Positions 55,307 through 63,283 of a stretch of DNA of 64,000 nt are shown piece by piece (the first letter of the stretch is position 1; every line of letters begins with the position of its first letter). The stretch spans positions 232,603-296,602 of the forward strand of contig CAVQRG010000006.1 of NCBI GenBank assembly GCA_963715185.1, given 5' to 3'. This stretch comes from an uncultured Planctomycetaceae bacterium. GTDB lineage: Bacteria; Planctomycetota; Planctomycetia; Planctomycetales; Planctomycetaceae. Both the position numbers and the translations under genes were made by a program. Below the pieces are notes generated by a model. That model was not told the origin of the DNA, made no database searches, and was given only the letters and a program-made list of their open reading frames with translations.

Positions 55307-55675
<369 letters not shown>

Positions 55676-55699
55676 TTTTTCACACCTCACCCTTCCGCT

Positions 55700-56576
55700 C
55701 GCCGCCCTCTGCTGGGTGGCTGGGTTCGGAGCGCAGCGACGCCCCCAGGATCCCGAGCAACCGGGGACTCGTCTGCGGCTCGACTCCAGCCACTCTCTCA
55801 GCATCGGGTAGCACCGGTTGCCCCAACCGGTGCCGCGCAGCGGCAGGAAGCTCTGCATGTCGCACTGCTGCACCTGCCAGACAGGTAGGGCCGACTATCG
55901 CCGTCCCTACAGGGCTGAGTCGGCAGATCACACCTCGTCCGCTCGCGGTCTCATGGCTCACGCCTGGCACCCTCCCGGGCTCTCTCAGCGAGAAGTTCTC
56001 CGCTTTCCGCAGTCGTTAACGGAGCGCCCGACATTGCAGCCAGAGTGTGATCCTGTTTGAATGGTAGCCAGCCCCGTCCTCTGTACCCACGGCGAGGTGC
56101 CGACCATGACAGTCGCCACTCAGCATCGGTGCGCACCACTCGGCCTGTTTCCCGACAGGCCCGAGCCGCGTCTCTACCAGGCTGTTGAAATACAAGCCCG
56201 AAGCGCCAGCGAGGGAATCCTGGAGGACCAATCACCCGCGAATCTGGGCTCCACTCGCTCGCGCGTCGTGCCGGTATCCGATGATTCAACGGGTTGCAAC
56301 GACCGCACCATCGAAGTCCTGCGAGTCCACCATGACCGCCGGCGTACGAAGCAGGCATCGGACCATCGACGCCTGAAGGTGTCCCGCTCTGGACTCTCGG
56401 CACTCGCCCCTCGGCTCTGTGACGACATCCGCACTGTGCAGGAGTTGCTCGGCCACAGCGACGTTCGGACGACGATGATCTATACTCACGTTTTGAACAA
56501 GGGTGGACGCGGTGTCCGCAGCCCGCTGGAGCGGATTCGAGAGTTGCTCGCGCGGAGCGAACGGATAAACGACTGA
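55700..56576 (+). pseudogene. intI: decayed integron-integrase (IntI-type tyrosine recombinase), N-terminally truncated at rnpB, multiple frameshifts
   Basis: The C-terminus [36 protein letters not shown] is a near-canonical IntI end. Upstream, spread over three frames but collinear with the intact IntI at 60979..61980, are W.R., [43 protein letters not shown] (matching LYGSGLRLM), RHSASVR (matching RHTIHVR) and ...LP. Confidence 0.8.
55805..55891 (+). repeat. 87-nt direct repeat copy R1 (inside the decayed intI)
   Basis: CGGGTAGCACCGGTTGCCCCAACCGGTGCCGCGCAGCGGCAGGAAGCTCTGCATGTCGCACTGCTG...GCCAGACAGGTAGGGC. 80 of 87 positions are identical to 59561-59647. Confidence 0.9.
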
Positions 56577-56735: not shown

Positions 56736-56742
56736 GTTAGCT
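56736..56742 (+). other. candidate attI/first-cassette recombination core GTTAGCT
   Basis: AAACACTA-GTTAGCT-GCC lies 160 nt after the intI stop and 31 nt before the first cassette ATG. It is the same core type as GTTCGCC (57472) and GTTAGCC (58259; minus strand at 60811-60805). Confidence 0.45.
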
Positions 56743-56766
56743 GCCAGGTAACATAGAGGGGCTACC

Positions 56767-57378
56767 ATGCCGGACGACTTTCCCAAATGGGCCTCGCCGG
56801 AAATATGCGATCAACTTCCAGGCATCCGGGAAGCCGGTGAATCGACTAACGTCGACTTCAAAGAGTCATTTCCCGATCAAGCGCATCGGCTTGGCAAGGA
56901 GATTGCTGCGATGGCAACATCCGGTGGCGGGCGCATCTTTATCGGTATCGACGACGACGGCGGTCTTCACGGAGTCGATGCATCAAACGGTGATGAGCGG
57001 GACGACATCGCAGAACGCGCACACAACATCGCCCTGACGGTGAAACCCATTCCAAACGTGAACCTGATGTTTGCCGTCGAGTCCGGCAGGACTGTCCTGG
57101 TCGTTGATGTCCCAAAGCAGTCGGATCCGGTCTACTATTACGATTTCCGCCCGTATGTCCGCGATGAGCGGCGAGCAAGACCGGCAGAGCCCGACGAAGT
57201 CGTTGAGCTGGTATGGGCACATCCAAGCTCCGGACACAAGAAGGAAATGGAACGAATTCTGCAACACCAAATGCAGAACTTCATCGACCACAATCGCGAA
57301 CTCGATAAGATCTCCGCAGACCAAATGCGTGCCTTCAACGAAACAATGAACGCTCCAAGACGCAACATGGGGCGGTAG
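56767..57378 (+). CDS. AlbA_2 (Schlafen-type putative DNA-binding) domain protein; candidate cassette 1
   Basis: 203 aa: GESTNVDFKESFPDQAHRLGKEIAAMATSGGGRIFIGIDDDGGLHGV...VLVVDVPKQSDPVYYYDFRPYVRD, then a short coiled coil. RBS GAGGGG sits 6 nt upstream. GC is visibly lower than in the flanks. Confidence 0.75.
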   Translation: MPDDFPKWASPEICDQLPGIREAGESTNVDFKESFPDQAHRLGKEIAAMATSGGGRIFIGIDDDGGLHGVDASNGDERDDIAERAHNIALTVKPIPNVNLMFAVESGRTVLVVDVPKQSDPVYYYDFRPYVRDERRARPAEPDEVVELVWAHPSSGHKKEMERILQHQMQNFIDHNRELDKISADQMRAFNETMNAPRRNMGR

Positions 57379-57385
57379 CCAACAA

Positions 57386-57478
57386 GCCAGCTAACAACCG
57401 ATTGCAACCGAGCGGCGGGGCGGGGCGTTCCTGAAGTCAACGGTTCTTCGCCGCCGCCGGGTTACCTTGAGCGTTCGC
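57386..57478 (+). other. candidate attC site A (imperfect palindrome)
   Basis: AGCTAAC (57389-95) pairs with GTTCGCC (57472-78). The inner stem is GCGGCGG (57412-18) with CCGCCGC (57451-57). The central loop TTCCTGAAGTCAACGG is shared with site B. Confidence 0.5.
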
Positions 57479-57637
57479 CACCTCAGGCGGCAAACGTTGC
57501 GGATGAGCCGTGAGGGTCACCCGCAATGCGACGGTGGGTTCCCCCACCACAGAGCCCGGGACGCCGGCGCCACCCGGCGTCGTGCCGGGGGCTCATCCGA
57601 AACGTTATCTCACGACATCCAGAGGACATTTCCACCA

Positions 57638-58168
57638 ATGGCTGATGTGACGATCCGAGAGCTCGCATCTGACTTGGAGATTGATCGCAGCCAGCTGCGC
57701 AAATGGGTCATCAAGCAACTGCCCGAAGTTTCGATCCACAAGATTCGTGATCCGAATGGTAGTGGTCTCGAAGTGATGGCCGTGTCATCTGGCGAGGCAG
57801 ACAAGATTCGCGAAGCTCGTACGAACTGGGACGGAAGCCGCGTTGCCAGAAGTGGTACTGATCAAACGCAGTTCGGCGTCTTCTATGCCATTCAATTGCT
57901 GCCGGAAATCTATCCGACCCGCATTAAGTTTGGGTATGCGACGGACGTAGAAGATCGCCTGATGACACACCGCTGTACGTGCCCAAATGCCGTCGTCCTA
58001 AGAACGTGGCGCTGCGATCCCAAATGGGAGCAGACGGCACTTGCTGCGGTTCGGAATCTCGACGAATCCGTTCTTGTCGGCGGCGAGGTGTACGACTGCA
58101 CGTCATTCGATCTCGTCGCTGAGCGACTCGATTCATTTTTCTTAATGCTTACCCCAACTGAAGAATAG
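57638..58168 (+). CDS. T5orf172/MUG113 (GIY-YIG-like) domain protein with N-terminal HTH-like segment; candidate cassette 2
   Basis: ATG 57638 gives MADVTIRELASDLEIDRSQLRKWVIKQL...FGVFYAIQLLPEIYPTRIKFGYATDVEDRLMTHRCTCPNAVVLRTWRCDPKWEQTALAAV...VGGEVYDC. Confidence 0.7.
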   Translation: MADVTIRELASDLEIDRSQLRKWVIKQLPEVSIHKIRDPNGSGLEVMAVSSGEADKIREARTNWDGSRVARSGTDQTQFGVFYAIQLLPEIYPTRIKFGYATDVEDRLMTHRCTCPNAVVLRTWRCDPKWEQTALAAVRNLDESVLVGGEVYDCTSFDLVAERLDSFFLMLTPTEE

Positions 58169-58177
58169 ACCGTGGCA

Positions 58178-58265
58178 TTGCAAACCGTTCCACACGGAGC
58201 CGCGGGCCGCGCGGGTTCTGAAATCAACGTCGTTCGCCGCGGCCCGGTGAACGGTGACGTTAGCC
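58178..58265 (+). other. candidate attC site B (imperfect palindrome)
   Basis: TGCAAAC (58178-84) pairs with GTTAGCC (58259-65). Further stems are ACCGTTC (58184-90) with GAACGGT (58249-55), and CGGGCCGCG (58203-11) with CGCGGCCCG (58238-46). The loop is GTTCTGAAATCAACG. Confidence 0.5.
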
Positions 58266-58295
58266 ACCAATGGTCTGAAGCGTTCGGATGAGTTC

Positions 58296-59456
58296 ATGCT
58301 TACGAAGCCGGCGGCGTCCAATGTGGTCGAGGTCATCTGCCAGGGTTCCCCCAAGGAGATGGGCTTGGCTCAAGGCGCGGGCGTACAGAACAAGATACAT
58401 GCTGCACGCCAAGTTCTTACCAAGCTGGAGGCGTTTCGCCTACAGCAGCCTTGGTGGCTACCCTATCGTGTCTACCGCTGGCTAGCCGAATACAAGGCGT
58501 CGCGGTTTCTTGCGCACTGCGACAACCCGGAAATGAGCCAACGCTTGGCAGGCATCGCAGAGGGAGCCGGCGTCAGTCTCAAGGCCATCTGTCTCTTTAA
58601 TGCCTTGGAGCCGCTCCTGTCGTCCGTGGGCGGTTGCACTGCGTGTCCTGGGGCGTGCTCGGCGGTTGCAGTGCGGGGCCGGCGCTCGGCGCACGGGAGA
58701 ACCCATCGTCGCCCGTAACTTTGATTACCTGCCACTGGTCCAGCCCTTCTACCTTGTGCGGGAGAGCCGATCACAAGGCAAGTTGCGGGCGTTCGAATTT
58801 ACGACCGCTCCTTTGGCCGGTGCCGTCGACGGCATGAATGAAGAAGGGTTGTGTATCACGTACAATTATGGCTTCACTACGGACGAGCCATCTGCCCCCG
58901 CTGCCCCGATCTCGATGGCCATTTCCGAGGCCCTGGGGCGCTGCGGAACCGTCGCTGAGGCGGCTGACTGGATTACCTCAAGGCCGCGCTGGGGTGGCGG
59001 GTTGCTCATGCTTTGCGATGCGAGCGGCGACATGGCCTCCCTGGAGTTATCGAGTACACGAAGCTATCTGCGCCGACCAGCCTCGGATGAAGATGTGCTG
59101 TTCCACACCAATGCGTTCTCCAGCGCCCCATGCGCGAAGTCCAGGTGCCGTGGAACGCGCTTTACACGAATTATGCTCCCACTGCCTTGCGTGGGCGGAG
59201 GCTCCATCAGTCATCGGAGTTACGAGACCGACGGTTCAAACAACTTCTGGCCGAGGTTGACGTTCTCGACGGCAGTCGGCTGGGGGCCATCATGGCTGAT
59301 CACGGCTCAGATGGCACCCCAAGTGATGACACGCCCTGCGTTCACGGTTCGTACTGGTATACAACAGCCTGTTTACAGTTTTTTCCAAAAGAGCGGCGGA
59401 TGCGCGTTGCCTACAACACTGCTTGCCGCGCGAATTTCGAAGATGTGGTTTTGTAG
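58296..59456 (+). pseudogene. peptidase C45 / acyl-CoA:6-APA acyltransferase family protein, two frameshifts; candidate cassette 3
   Basis: MLTKPAASNVVEVICQGSPKEMGLAQG...LLSSVGGCTA (Ntn nucleophile G-C-T), then GEPIVARNFDYLPLVQPFYLV...AVDGMNEEGLCITYNY...LMLCDASGDMASLELS, then MREVQVPWNALYTNY...CVHGSYWYTTACLQFFPKERRMRVAYNTACRANFEDVVL. Breaks are near 58690 and 59128 (a C4 run). Confidence 0.75.
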
Positions 59457-59560
59457 CCGCATCGCCCAGGGCTTAACGCAGGCGTCTATCTCGCTGGCAG
59501 ATGCGCCAGCGGCTAACCATCGCATCCACCGGAGCGACGGTGGCCAGCCGATTTTCAAAC

Positions 59561-59647
59561 CGGGTAGCACCGGTTGCCTCAACCGGTGCCGCGCAGCGGC
59601 AGGAAGCTCTGTATGTCGCACTGCTGGCCAAGCCAGACAGGTCGGGC
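59561..59647 (+). repeat. 87-nt direct repeat copy R2 (displaced fragment of the intI N-terminal region)
   Basis: 80 of 87 positions are identical to 55805-55891. Weaker similarity extends about 40 nt upstream and about 100 nt downstream. Confidence 0.85.
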
Positions 59648-59900: not shown

Positions 59901-60340
59901 ATGCGAATCCCCGTTCTCTCCGCCTTTGTCATCAGTCTGCTTCCACTCTCGGCACCCGCCGATGACACCACGTACGACGTCGTCATCTACGGAGGCACGT
60001 CGGCCGGGGTGATCGCCGCCGTCCAGTCGACCCACATGGGGAAGTCCGTCGTCATCGTGGCCCCGGAAACTCACCTCGGCGGGTTGACTGCGGGGGGCTG
60101 GGCTGGACCGACAGCGGCCGCAAGGAAGTGATCGGCGGACTGTCGCGCGAGTTCTACCAGCGTCTCAAGGTGCATTACGATCAACCTGCCGCCTGGCGAC
60201 AGCAGCAGCCCGCAGAGTATCGCCTGTATCGACCCGATGACGACGCCATGTGGGTCTTCGAGCCCCATGTGGCCGAACAGACCTACGACGCCTGGATCGC
60301 GGAGCTGCAGATCCCGGTCGTCCGCGACGCCTGGCTCGAT
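59901..60340 (+). pseudogene. FAD-dependent oxidoreductase (PF12831-like), N-terminal fragment only, one frameshift near 60097
   Basis: [66 protein letters not shown], then [29 protein letters not shown]...WVFEPHVAEQTYDAWIAELQIPVV. The break is at a G6 run where G7 restores the frame. Family similarity is lost after about 60340. Confidence 0.7.
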
Positions 60341-60383
60341 ACCCGCACCGCGAGGGCCTTGTACCTCAATGCTGTGACGAGGG

Positions 60384-60426
60384 GGCCAACAACCTCTTCG
60401 CGACAGCAGCAATTCCTTGTTAGACC
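60384..60426 (-). other. candidate short attC-like palindrome ending the minus-strand cassette
   Basis: On the minus strand: GGTCTAACAAGG ...22 nt... GGTTGTTGGCC. The stems are GGTC/GGCC and AACAA/TTGTT with one bulged T. GTCTAAC fits RYYYAAC, and GTTGGCC is of the GTTRGCC type. At 43 nt it is shorter than typical attC sites. Confidence 0.35.
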
Positions 60427-60804
60427 GCGGACAGGTTGCGGGCGGTCCCCGACAAACCCATCGCCCGTGAACTCTGCGAGGTCCAGTTTGAGCAGCCCCG
60501 AAACCCCGCCCGGCGACTCGGGGACCGCCCGTTCAGGCGCTCGGAGGACGCCCTTCCCTTGATCGGGACAGCGGACGCCGTGCTCTTGGATGACGGTTGG
60601 CGAGGCGTGCCCGATCTGGGATCGCGCGGACGGAGAAGCGCCGCACCTAGCCGATGCGAGCCAGCCTGGGCGCCCTCGTGAGGTTCGCGGCGCCGCGTAC
60701 TGAGCGAAGCCCCAGTTCAACGCTTTTCAAAGCAGTTGTGGAGTCCAGAGTCACGAACCGAGCGAGGATCTCTGTCGTGGCGAGCGAGGCAGGGACGACC
60801 CACG

Positions 60805-60811
60805 GGCTAAC
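60805..60811 (-). other. candidate attI recombination core GTTAGCC (minus strand)
   Basis: The minus strand reads GAATCAGA-GTTAGCC-CGTG, 168 nt after the stop of the intact intI. This is the same geometry as 56736 in the decayed locus. Confidence 0.4.
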
Positions 60812-60978
60812 TCTGATTCAACTGACCCACGCCGCACTATCGCGCGCCGCGGGGCCGTCCATGTATTCACTCCCCAGGGACGCGGGGCAACTGCCCTCTG
60901 CGGACGGACGATGGCGCCATTTTGGTGTCGCCCCCACCCTGGCTGCGTACGCGGGTCCGCATAACCTCCCCGGCCATC

Positions 60979-61980
60979 CTACAGCCGATCCAGCGGGCTC
61001 CTGACCCCGGCGGGCCCGTTCATCAGCACGTGGGTATAGAGCATGGTTGTCTTGAGGTCCCGGTGCCCGAGGAGCTGCTGGACGGTCCGAACGTCCACTC
61101 CGTCCTCCAATAGATGGGTGGCGAACGAGTGCCGGAACGTGTGGCAGGTGGCATGCTTGGCGAGGCCGGCGCGACGCACGGCTTCCTTCACCGCCCGCTG
61201 AAGGATCGAGGGGTCGCAGTGATGCCGGCCCTGACGGCCGGTCCTGGGGTCCCGCCATCGGCTCCGCTGTGGAAAGACCCACTGCCACCCCCACTCCGTC
61301 ACGGCTTGGGGATACTTCCGCGCCAGGGCTTCGGGTAGGTCGACCCGCCCGTGCCCTTCGGCCAGGTCCTCCCTATGCGTCTCCTTCACCACGGCCAGGT
61401 GGTGCTTCAGCGCTTCATCCAGACTCTGCGGCAACATGGTGGCTCGGTCCTTGGCGCCCTTGCCGTCCCGCACGTGGATGGTGTGGCGTCCGAAGTCCAC
61501 GCTCTGGACCCGCAGCCGCAGGCACTCCATGAGCCGCAGTCCGGATCCATACATGAGCCGCGCCATGAGTTGCGTGTCGCCGTCCATGTGCTGGATCACG
61601 TCCCGGACCTCCCGGCGCGTCATCACCACCGGGATCCTCTCCGGCATCCTGGCCCGCGCGACCCCGTCCAGGTCGCCGAGGGAACGCCCCAGGACGTGCC
61701 GGTACAGGAACAACAGGGCGCTGAGGGCCTGGTTCTGCGTCGAGGCGCTCACCCCCTGGTCCACGGCAAGGTGCGAGAGGAACGCCCCGACCTCCTCCGC
61801 CCCCATTTCGTCGGGGTGACGAAGACCGTGGAACCGCACGAACCGGCGCGTCCACAGCACATACGCCTTCTCCGTCCTGACGCTGTAGTGGCGCGACCGC
61901 AGTGTGGCCCGGAGTCGCTCCAGTAGTTTCGGTGCGGGGGCCATGTCCCGGAGATCGCGCCTCGGGGTGGGCGCATCCAT
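60979..61980 (-). CDS. intI: integron integrase (IntI-type tyrosine recombinase), intact
   Basis: 333 aa: [64 protein letters not shown]...[17 protein letters not shown]...[15 protein letters not shown]. It carries the IntI-specific insertion [40 protein letters not shown]. The end is [52 protein letters not shown]. Confidence 0.92.
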
Positions 61981-62002: not shown

Positions 62003-62586
62003 CTAGCGCACGATCTCCACGATCTCCGCCCGAACCTCGCCGTCGTCTCCGACCCGGACCTTGGCCACCGTCACCGGAAGGGTGAACCGCCTCGGTCCGG
62101 CACTCCCGGGATTGAGATAGAGCACCCTGCCCCACCGTTCGTTCAGCGGCTTGTGCGTGTGCCCGCTCACCACCAGGGCGATCCCGGCGGCTTCGGGATC
62201 CAACTCCAGCTCCCGGTCGCCGTGATGGACGTACGCCAGCGGCCCCGTGGGCACGGGTGCGCCGGACCCTTCTGCGATCCGTCCGTCCGGGGCTCCCAGG
62301 TCCACCACCACGCTCCGGGGCAGCCCGCTCCGCAGCGCTCCGTAGTCGGTGTTCCCGTGCACGGCAAACACCGGCGCGATCCGCTCCAGGGCTTCCAGAA
62401 TGGCCGGGTCGCCCACGTCCCCGGCATGGAGGATGAGGTCGCTTCCCCGAAGTGCCTGCAGCGGCTTCCGGACGCAACAGCTCCGTGGGTGTCCGAGATC
62501 ACGCCGATGGTCTCGCACCGTTCCCTTCGCCTCTTGGTTCCGCTTGCCGCTGGGTGGATCCGGGACCCAGCTTTGGGCTCGTCCAC
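62003..62586 (-). pseudogene. YfcE/MJ0936-type metallophosphoesterase, two frameshifts near 62460-62485
   Basis: ETIGVISDTHG, then LLRPEA, then LQALRGSDLILHAGDVGDPAILEALERIAPVFAVHGNTDYG...LVVSGHTHKPL...YLNPGSAGPRRF, in three frames. The stop is 23 nt upstream of the intI start on the same strand. The 5' end is uncertain. Confidence 0.75.
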
Positions 62587-62610
62587 TCCTCCGGCTACCC
62601 CGAGGTCCCC

Positions 62611-63283
62611 GTGTCGTGCGCCCAGTGTAACGGTATCGTCCAGGAGTTCGACGACCGCCTCGCCCGGCGCGAACTACGGCGCTACCGGCGACGCGGCCCG
62701 TCGGGCACGACGCGGATCGACTCCTGGACGCCTCCGCGACCGGGGCGTGGAGGGGCGCTCGTTCCTCGACGTCGGGGGTGGCGTTGGTGCCGATCCAACA
62801 CGGGCTCATGGCCGCGGGCGCATCCCATGGTACCCATGTGGACGCGTCTCCCGCCTACCTGGCGGCGGCCAGCGACGAGGCCGTGCGCCTGGGCCATGCC
62901 GACCGCGTGCGCTACGTGGAGGGGGACGTCGTGACGCTGGCTCCCTGAGCTCGAACTCGGCCGACGTCGTCACCCTCGACCGGGTGGTGTGCTGCTACGA
63001 CGACATGCCTGCCCTGGTGGACGCCTCTGCGTCCCGTGCCCGCCGGCTCTACGGGCTGGTCTTACCCCGGGAGCACCTTCCAATGCGCCTGGCGTTCATC
63101 GGCACTCAACCTCATCCAGCGCATCCGCGCGCCGTCCCTTCAACGTCTTCCTCCACGGCACTGCGGCGGTGGAGGCCCGCGTCCGCCGCCACGGCTTCCG
63201 TAAGATCTTCTCACGCCCACTCTCCCCTCTGGCAGATCCACCTCTACCGCAAGGACGACGGGACCGCCCCCGCCGCCTCCTGA
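62611..63283 (+). pseudogene. class I SAM-dependent methyltransferase with N-terminal CxxC, about six frameshifts
   Basis: Readable only by frame hopping: (V)SCAQCNGIVQEFDDRLARRELRRYRRRGPSGTTRI, LLDA, RDRGVEGRSFLDVGGGVGA and IQHGLMAAGASHGTHVDASPAYLAAASDEAVRLGHADRVRYVEGDVVTLAP. It continues NSADVVTLDRVVCCYDDMPALVDASASRARRLYGLVLPRE, LNLIQRIRARPFNVFLHGTAAVEARVRRHGFRKIF and PLWQIHLYRKDD. Confidence 0.7.

Follow-up and report, generated by a model that had tools for sequence, protein, structure and literature searches.

A predicted chromosomal integron with an intact integrase gene and a single cassette closed by a truncated attC site in a Planctomycetaceae-like bacterium

We analyzed a stretch of 64,000 nucleotides (the window) of contig CAVQRG010000006.1, from an uncultured Planctomycetaceae bacterium, in which an initial annotation made from the sequence alone had recognized an integron with an intact integrase and a one-cassette array. 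Read along the minus strand, the locus comprises the integrase gene intI, a conserved non-coding stretch with the putative integron attachment site (attI), one gene cassette, and the beginning of a cassette recombination site (attC). The last of these abuts a fragment of a chromosomal gene for a flavin adenine dinucleotide (FAD)-dependent oxidoreductase on the plus strand, and the stub of a second, different intI gene lies beyond it.

The intI gene (60979 to 61980, minus strand) encodes a predicted protein of 333 residues, which was assigned with the IntI-specific profile TIGR02249, with Pfam and by alignment with the integrase VchIntIA (PDB 2A3V). The match to TIGR02249 covered the full profile (positions 1 to 315 of 315) and scored 469.6 bits, the cut-off being 265. 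The profiles of XerC and XerD gave scores far under their cut-offs. Pfam returned the SAM-like N-terminal domain (Phage_int_SAM_4) and the catalytic domain (Phage_integrase) of the family. Residues 20 to 333 aligned with VchIntIA (E = 1.9e-86) with one single-residue gap, which lies outside the IntI-specific insertion. The insertion itself, a stretch carrying the motif WGWQWVFPQ, aligned without gaps (residues 213 to 245), and its residues W230, W232, Q233, W234, F236 and P237 were invariant in an alignment of 20 IntI sequences (alignment A1). Equally invariant in A1, and matching the positions of 2A3V, were R149, K174, H280, R283, H306 and Y315, the R-K-H-R-H-Y set of tyrosine recombinases. 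As judged from its sequence, the product of this gene is an intact integron integrase. The open reading frame (ORF), the profile score, the invariant residues and the structural alignment bear out the claim of the initial annotation that the protein has all hallmarks of IntI; the profiles and the gapless insertion speak against a XerC/D or phage integrase lacking that insertion. Homologues in environmental sequences number in the thousands, the closest being 97%, 90% and 82% identical. A sequence look-up found no record of the exact IntI sequence, and no IntI above 67% identity to it turned up in the GTDB genomes scanned. Two contigs of an estuary metatranscriptome matched intI, at 100% and 98%, which we take as a weak hint of its expression.

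Downstream of the intI stop codon lies the putative attI region (60805 to 60978, minus strand), which we delimited by comparison with relatives as the conserved non-coding stretch that leads to the crossover point. The heptamer GTTAGCC is found at 60811-60805 on the minus strand, 168 nucleotides past the stop, the corresponding distance in the relatives being 175-260 nucleotides. Sequence blocks of this region (TGAATACATGG ... GGGTC.GTTGAATCAGAGTTAG, of which GTTGAATCAGAGTTAG is the last) are common to the window and to the related loci L087, L003, L001 and L005. The 60 nucleotides ahead of the crossover G are 80% identical to the window in L087 and 82% identical in L003, and the 60 nucleotides past GTTAG are 60% identical to both, the mean of shuffled sequences being 0.55. 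Two contigs from metagenomes mark the same edge: a 634-nucleotide contig of an estuary metagenome (run X1) matches the window over 60807-61146 and then continues into 283 nucleotides of unlike sequence beyond 60807, and a contig of run X7 starts at position 60807. Because conservation ends at GTTAG and the two contigs diverge or begin at 60807, the crossover (G|TT) is placed, by comparison of sequences, between 60811 and 60810, within GTTAGCC. The proposal that this heptamer marks the attI crossover therefore finds support in comparative data beyond the heptamer alone. The first cassettes differ among L087, L003 and the X1 contig, which indicates turnover at attI among the relatives. For most environmental integrons the attI is unknown, so that a crossover mapped by comparison is a useful addition.

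The cassette body extends over some 385 nucleotides on the minus strand (60426 to 60810), beginning with the TT of the crossover and ending with the last base before the R'' box of the attC remnant. It has a homologue in the metagenome contig L189: the segment 60806-60433 is 81% identical, over 378 nucleotides, to L189 2746-3130. The L189 copy sits behind an ordinary attC of 117 nucleotides and starts with GTTAGACCGCGG. At the end of the window cassette, the R'' box and its flank read CCGCGGTCTAAC, which matches the reverse complement of that start at every position. The window cassette itself starts with GTTAGCCCGTGG, a match to the L189 start at 10 of 12 positions. Here is one unit in two array contexts with an edge exactly at G|TT, and it is consequently to be regarded as a gene cassette. 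We conclude from these sequence comparisons that the roughly 380 nucleotides past attI represent a true mobile cassette and that there is exactly one, the count originally given. Around the L189 copy (L189 2560-3250), the homologous cassette and its preceding attC are bracketed by inverted copies of CCCTGATGGGTGACAG. The attC belonging to the L189 cassette appears to be interrupted just past its R'' box, where a small mobile element may have inserted.

The cassette shows no sign of encoding a protein. Differences between the window and L189 copies were spread evenly over the three codon phases (13/9/14 over 204 nucleotides, the longest block without gaps) without three-base periodicity, and the insertions and deletions that separate the copies (4, 1, 1, 1 and 1 nucleotides) are not multiples of three. 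Every reading frame is stopped in one copy or the other, and the guanine-plus-cytosine content by codon phase is flat over 60400-60800. A minus-strand frame that terminates at the TAA inside the R'' box does exist, as had been described, but the idea that it is a cassette ORF did not hold: the frame has no ATG, GTG or TTG start that would yield at least 40 residues, there is no coding signature, and a Pfam search of four candidate translations returned no match for any frame. A search of 60300-61000 against Rfam (E <= 1) gave no match either, and the folds of the cassette RNA were unconvincing on both strands (z = -1.57 and +0.17). By comparison with its L189 homologue the cassette is therefore best described as ORF-less, either non-coding from the outset or decayed. 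It is conceivable, though unlikely, that the cassette is a conserved, mobile element without coding function, for instance one that supplies a regulatory RNA, a promoter or a binding site. Such an element would circulate among environmental integrons of its attC family; its copies in two unrelated arrays have stayed 81% identical, and the one in the window would have become fixed when the 3' half of its attC was lost.

The cassette is followed on the minus strand by a truncated attC (60342 to 60425) of which we recognize the 5' half, from the family consensus, from complete attC sites of relatives and with a family-specific model (R2, see below). It consists of the R'' box GTCTAAC (60425-60419), which fits RYYYAAC as initially described, the spacer AA (60418-60417), the L'' arm GGAATTGCTGCTG with its extra G (60416-60404) and the first part of the variable region (60403 to about 60342). 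Its counterpart on the 3' side is missing, as the L' partner CAGCAGAATTCC of the L'' arm is absent and no R' box is present. The segment CTAACAAGGAATTGCTGCTG (60423-60404, minus strand) matches exactly a degenerate consensus of 20 nucleotides that was built only from the left halves of three attC sites of L001, and the expectation for a chance occurrence in the window was 0.01 matches in a dinucleotide-shuffle control. Note that the degenerate 20-mer gave chance matches in unrelated metagenome genes, so that we relied on the expectation for the window and on family members with both halves. A 35-nucleotide core (60398-60432) recurs with unlike flanks in many contigs of four metagenomes, including high-depth unitigs of 31 nucleotides; repetition among unrelated flanks is the behavior of a repeated attC core.

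Complete attC sites of this family were found in metagenome contigs as 69 distinct sequences of 87-185 nucleotides. They share the form R''-AA/CA-GGAATT(G)CTGCTG ... CAGCAGAATTCC-N5-GTTAG, the ending CAGCAGAATTCC-N5-GTTAG being present in all 69. The remnant aligns with the complete sites of L137, L144 and L206 as far as CCCTCGCGGTGCGGG and then diverges. The motif AAGGCCCTCGCGGTGCGGG stands equally far from R'' in the window and in the 164-nucleotide sites of L144 and L206, with divergence at about 60342, and exact 15- to 16-mers connect the variable region of the remnant with family members, again at equal offset from R''. A subfamily of long sites (164-185 nucleotides) comprises L144 1103-1266, L206 264-427, L092 167-351 and L114 1457-1640, which score 51-62 bits with R2 and keep internal motifs such as CCCTCGCGGTGC.

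Homology to the attC family stops at 60342, and a second homology begins within 1-2 nucleotides of that point, so that a fusion junction can be placed at about 60341 (60340 to 60342). On its other side lies a 5' fragment of the FAD-dependent oxidoreductase gene (59901 to 60340, plus strand), identified with Pfam and with homologues, which marks the end of the array. This pseudogene holds the 5' third of a gene for a secreted protein, the 3' two-thirds being gone. Its translation covers only positions 1 to 112 of the 416 positions of PF12831, and its homology to protein P0122 (73% identical) stops at ...VVRDAWLD, that is, at 60340; full-length homologues run hundreds of residues further. The fragment also carries a frameshift of 1 nucleotide in a run of six G (60092-60097). 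In the related genome L210, the genes for RsgA, an FHA protein, rnpB and the FAD-dependent oxidoreductase are syntenic with the window, and the stretch of L210 retrieved contains no integron. This synteny with rnpB and RsgA marks the FAD gene as ancestral. From 60341 to its end, the window gave no match to L210. The variable segment that bears the integron is directly preceded by a bacterial class A RNase P RNA gene (55307-55679, plus strand; 288.6 bits).

Overall, the locus is in all likelihood a real chromosomal integron platform, with an intact intI, an attI, one ORF-less cassette and a truncated attC joined at about 60341 to what is left of a FAD gene. Given that half of the attC is missing and that the fusion lies where the rest should follow, the array reads as truncated and partly decayed. 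The view that it is a functional one-cassette array is consequently given up: its attC is without L' and R', and what follows is a truncated host gene.

Several observations weigh against this reading of the locus. The variable-region homology of the remnant (60403-60342) consists of short exact matches (E = 0.01-0.04), which makes the extent of the remnant less certain than its R''-L'' core, and both attC models used here, R1 and R2, are surrogates for the attC model of IntegronFinder. The metatranscriptome signal may stem from DNA carry-over or from a close relative, and a promoter and terminator scan of the locus found nothing, with no promoter-like site. Finally, no public contig lies over the junction at 60341 (none spans 60336-60398), and the fusion might be an assembly chimera formed inside the repeated attC region, in which case the real genome would have a complete attC, a longer array and an intact FAD gene elsewhere. 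Cassette arrays do disrupt assemblies, as the ends of many related contigs at attI or attC show, and the frameshifts in the G homopolymer of the FAD fragment and in an acyltransferase gene (C45, described below) suggest an error-prone consensus. However, the join lies about 60 nucleotides past the repeated 35-nucleotide core, in variable sequence that is not repeated; the 5' part of the FAD gene is still in its ancestral place beside rnpB; and truncated or degenerate attC sites of the same family occur in other metagenome contigs (e.g., L120, L182, L128 and L170). We therefore hold a chimera to be improbable.

The locus had initially been described as a complete one-cassette integron that ends in an unusually short attC, a bulged palindrome of 43 nucleotides with GTCTAAC as R'' and an R' within GGTTGTTGGCC; IntI would then still recombine this site. 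Nine base pairs and one bulge can be drawn between the two arms, and the R'' box has the expected form. However, a stretch of 55 nucleotides containing the palindrome folds no better than its shuffles (z = +0.43). The right arm finds a different explanation in the family alignment, since past L'' the members L137 and L134 read TCGCGGAAGAGCTGATGG, and TCGCGAAGAGGTTGTTGG of the window aligns there; the arm GGTTGTTGGCC is thus a part of the variable region and not an R' box. The two candidate boxes, GTTGTTG and GTTGGCC, do not fit GTTRRRY and likewise align to the variable region, the L'' arm is left without a partner, and even the shortest of the 69 complete family members measures 87 nucleotides.

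Model searches agree with this. The general attC model R1 found many held-out attC sites but missed attC2 and attC3 of L001, and its silence at the remnant is accordingly uninformative; this is why the family-specific model R2 was built. Structures for the models were set by hand, as the RNAalifold consensus of the four L001 sites was poor. At 60384-60425, R2 gave 7.7 bits (E = 9.1), and complete held-out members, among them each of the four L001 sites and the long sites of L144, L206, L092 and L114, scored 31-98 bits. The palindrome thus failed the attC models, an outcome that had been named beforehand as one that would count against it. R1 had no hit at the remnant and nothing above 12.5 bits (E = 1.1) anywhere in the window, neither model found a complete attC in the 64 kb, and our own scanner, which is noisy in DNA rich in guanine and cytosine and served otherwise for harvesting training sites, found no YTAAC...GTTAR pair with a stem in the whole window. 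That short junctions of this kind do occur is indicated by a low-depth contig of 151 nucleotides from run X3, which matches 60398-60432 and reads attC left half, TCGCGA and GTTAGCC, with only 21 nucleotides from R'' to R'. This contig may represent a deletion derivative or a recombination product. On balance, a complete short attC is very improbable, and the palindrome is best understood, from the sequences of the family, as the 5' half (R''-L'' with the beginning of the variable region) of an attC that normally measures 87-185 nucleotides.

The second intI gene is represented by a C-terminal stub (56421 to 56576, plus strand) that was detected with tblastn and hmmsearch. Its match to the intact IntI covers 38 residues at 68% identity, the profile match is confined to positions 289 to 326 of 327, and no other frame matches. 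The ORF of the stub ends at 56576, convergent with the intact gene and 4.4 kb away from it. The initial annotation had correctly noted two convergent integrase genes 4.4 kb apart, one dead and one intact, with different sequences; the gene it called decayed is merely this 38-residue stub. The carriage of more than one integron is common and concerns about 20% of integron-bearing genomes (PMC4889954). An attI shared by the two loci was considered and rejected, as no alignment was obtained between the attI of the intact locus and the DNA past the stub.

Past the stub lie three plus-strand units with degenerate attC-like sites of another type (remnant array, 56736-59520). The sequence G|TTAGCT occurs at 56736. 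Next come a Schlafen/AlbA_2 ORF (56767-57378) and a degenerate attC (57390-57479), and the R'' of this site, AGCTAAC, pairs with the beginning of its unit. A second ORF, which ends at 58168, precedes another degenerate attC; this site is homologous to the first and closes with GTTAGCC at 58259. The series closes with a frameshifted pseudogene of a C45/AAT acyltransferase and with GGCTAAC at 59511. The general model R1 gave the two degenerate sites only 9-10 bits. The C45 gene (58254 to about 59500) is split over two frames, and, like the frameshift of the FAD fragment, this may reflect either a real pseudogene or an error of the assembly consensus. A direct repeat of 87 nucleotides (55805-55891 and 59561-59647, 92% identical, two copies only in the window) brackets the stub and its three cassette-like units. 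L210 has entirely different DNA in the interval from rnpB to the FAD gene, and the repeat possibly records a Campbell-type insertion or a duplication.

That the half-site might instead be the L'-R' end of an attC of this dead array (CAGCAGCAATTCC-TT-GTTAGAC on the plus strand), which would leave the intact intI without a cassette as a pure In0, gains some plausibility from the plus-strand genes between the two integrases, which look like cassettes of the stub integron, and from the resemblance by design of an attC left half read backwards to a right half, but it is highly unlikely, since right halves of the family have a 5-nucleotide spacer ahead of GTTAG and no extra base and the site has the 2-nucleotide spacer and extra G of a left half, the L189 homologue is oriented like the minus strand, with a start that pairs with the R'' flank of the window, the attC type of the stub array differs, and 60806-60433 is itself a mobile cassette.

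We return to the intact intI as the platform of the single cassette. The attI, the cassette and the attC remnant all lie 3' of intI on the minus strand, that is, in co-orientation with it. The contig L001/L002, whose IntI is 72% identical, has housekeeping genes upstream and, downstream and on the same strand as intI, short toxin-antitoxin cassettes split by attC sites. When R1 was applied to 80 loci from GTDB genomes, 17 showed attC sites downstream of intI in the same orientation, and 14 showed them upstream in divergent orientation. A neighbor-joining distance tree of IntI, which carries no support values, joined the window protein with L087, L003, L001 and L005 within a clade of 15 loci, all with co-oriented arrays (orientation being scored for members with detectable arrays), and placed the 14 divergent loci outside this clade. 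These patterns confirm the co-oriented geometry that had been proposed, which all of the nearest relatives with detectable arrays share, and they answer the question of whether this IntI groups with integrases of inverted orientation. Such a geometry has already been described for the inverted integron-integrase group, of the Treponema denticola type (PMC4889954; PMC3607928). We assign the locus to the sedentary chromosomal integrons with this known geometry, which is not new.

Directly upstream of intI, and co-oriented with it, lies a gene for a Metallophos_2/YfcE-type phosphodiesterase (62003 to 62515, the upper end being approximate; minus strand; TIGR00040, PF12850). The same order of Metallophos_2 and intI is present in contig L003, whose IntI is 82% identical, which places the integron in a conserved chromosomal context. 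Past the phosphodiesterase gene there is a frame that resembles a methyltransferase dependent on S-adenosylmethionine (62560-63283, plus strand; motif LDVGGGVG) and that seems to be split over more than one frame; its position agrees with the order Methyltransf-Metallophos_2-intI of L003. The RsgA protein of the window is closest, at 58-65% identity, to proteins named Planctomycetaceae, Maioricimonas and Planctomicrobium, and it is 77% identical to that of L210; RsgA served to place the host as a Planctomycetaceae-like bacterium.

The history and the present capacity of the locus can be outlined from these features. The rest of the array would have been lost through a deletion or rearrangement whose breakpoints fell within the attC and the FAD gene. 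Provided that it is expressed, IntI would still be able to insert circular cassettes at the G|TT by recombining their attC with attI. The resident cassette would no longer be excisable, because the folded bottom strand of its attC would be without the L' and R' arms that IntI needs. In operation, the locus may thus resemble an In0 platform with one frozen cassette, the activity of IntI and attI being a prediction from their sequences. These results add a well-delimited chromosomal integron of inverted orientation in a Planctomycetaceae-like lineage, and they document a large environmental attC family (87-185 nucleotides) together with an ORF-less cassette present in two arrays. They also illustrate array decay, in which an attC cut mid-way and fused to a truncated host gene leaves behind an intact integrase and a frozen cassette; automated tools would label such a locus In0. 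Our understanding of integrons is unchanged by a locus that is ordinary and of little novelty.

Comparison with known systems helps to define what the locus is. In0 elements, which IntegronFinder defines as an intI without recognizable attC (PMC4889954), are similar in having an intact intI with attI and no attC that passes a covariance model; however, the window retains a recognizable cassette and the 5' half of its attC, which makes it an array that has been truncated rather than a platform that is empty. VchIntIA (IntI4) of Vibrio cholerae resembles the window integrase in full-length alignment, catalytic residues and IntI-specific insertion, and differs in its opposite orientation relative to the array and in its attC family. 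The environmental attC family defined by CTAACAAGGAATTGCTGCTG ... CAGCAGAATTCC-N5-GTTAG (L001, L137, L144, L206 and others) has the same R'', spacer, L'' with extra-helical G and start of the variable region as the window copy, which in contrast to the complete members is without the 3' half. With the inverted integron-integrase group the locus shares its sedentary chromosomal setting, and its IntI clusters with integrases of that geometry. It differs from that group in its one ORF-less cassette with half an attC, in the intI stub that faces it at 4.4 kb, and in its host, a Planctomycetaceae-like bacterium.

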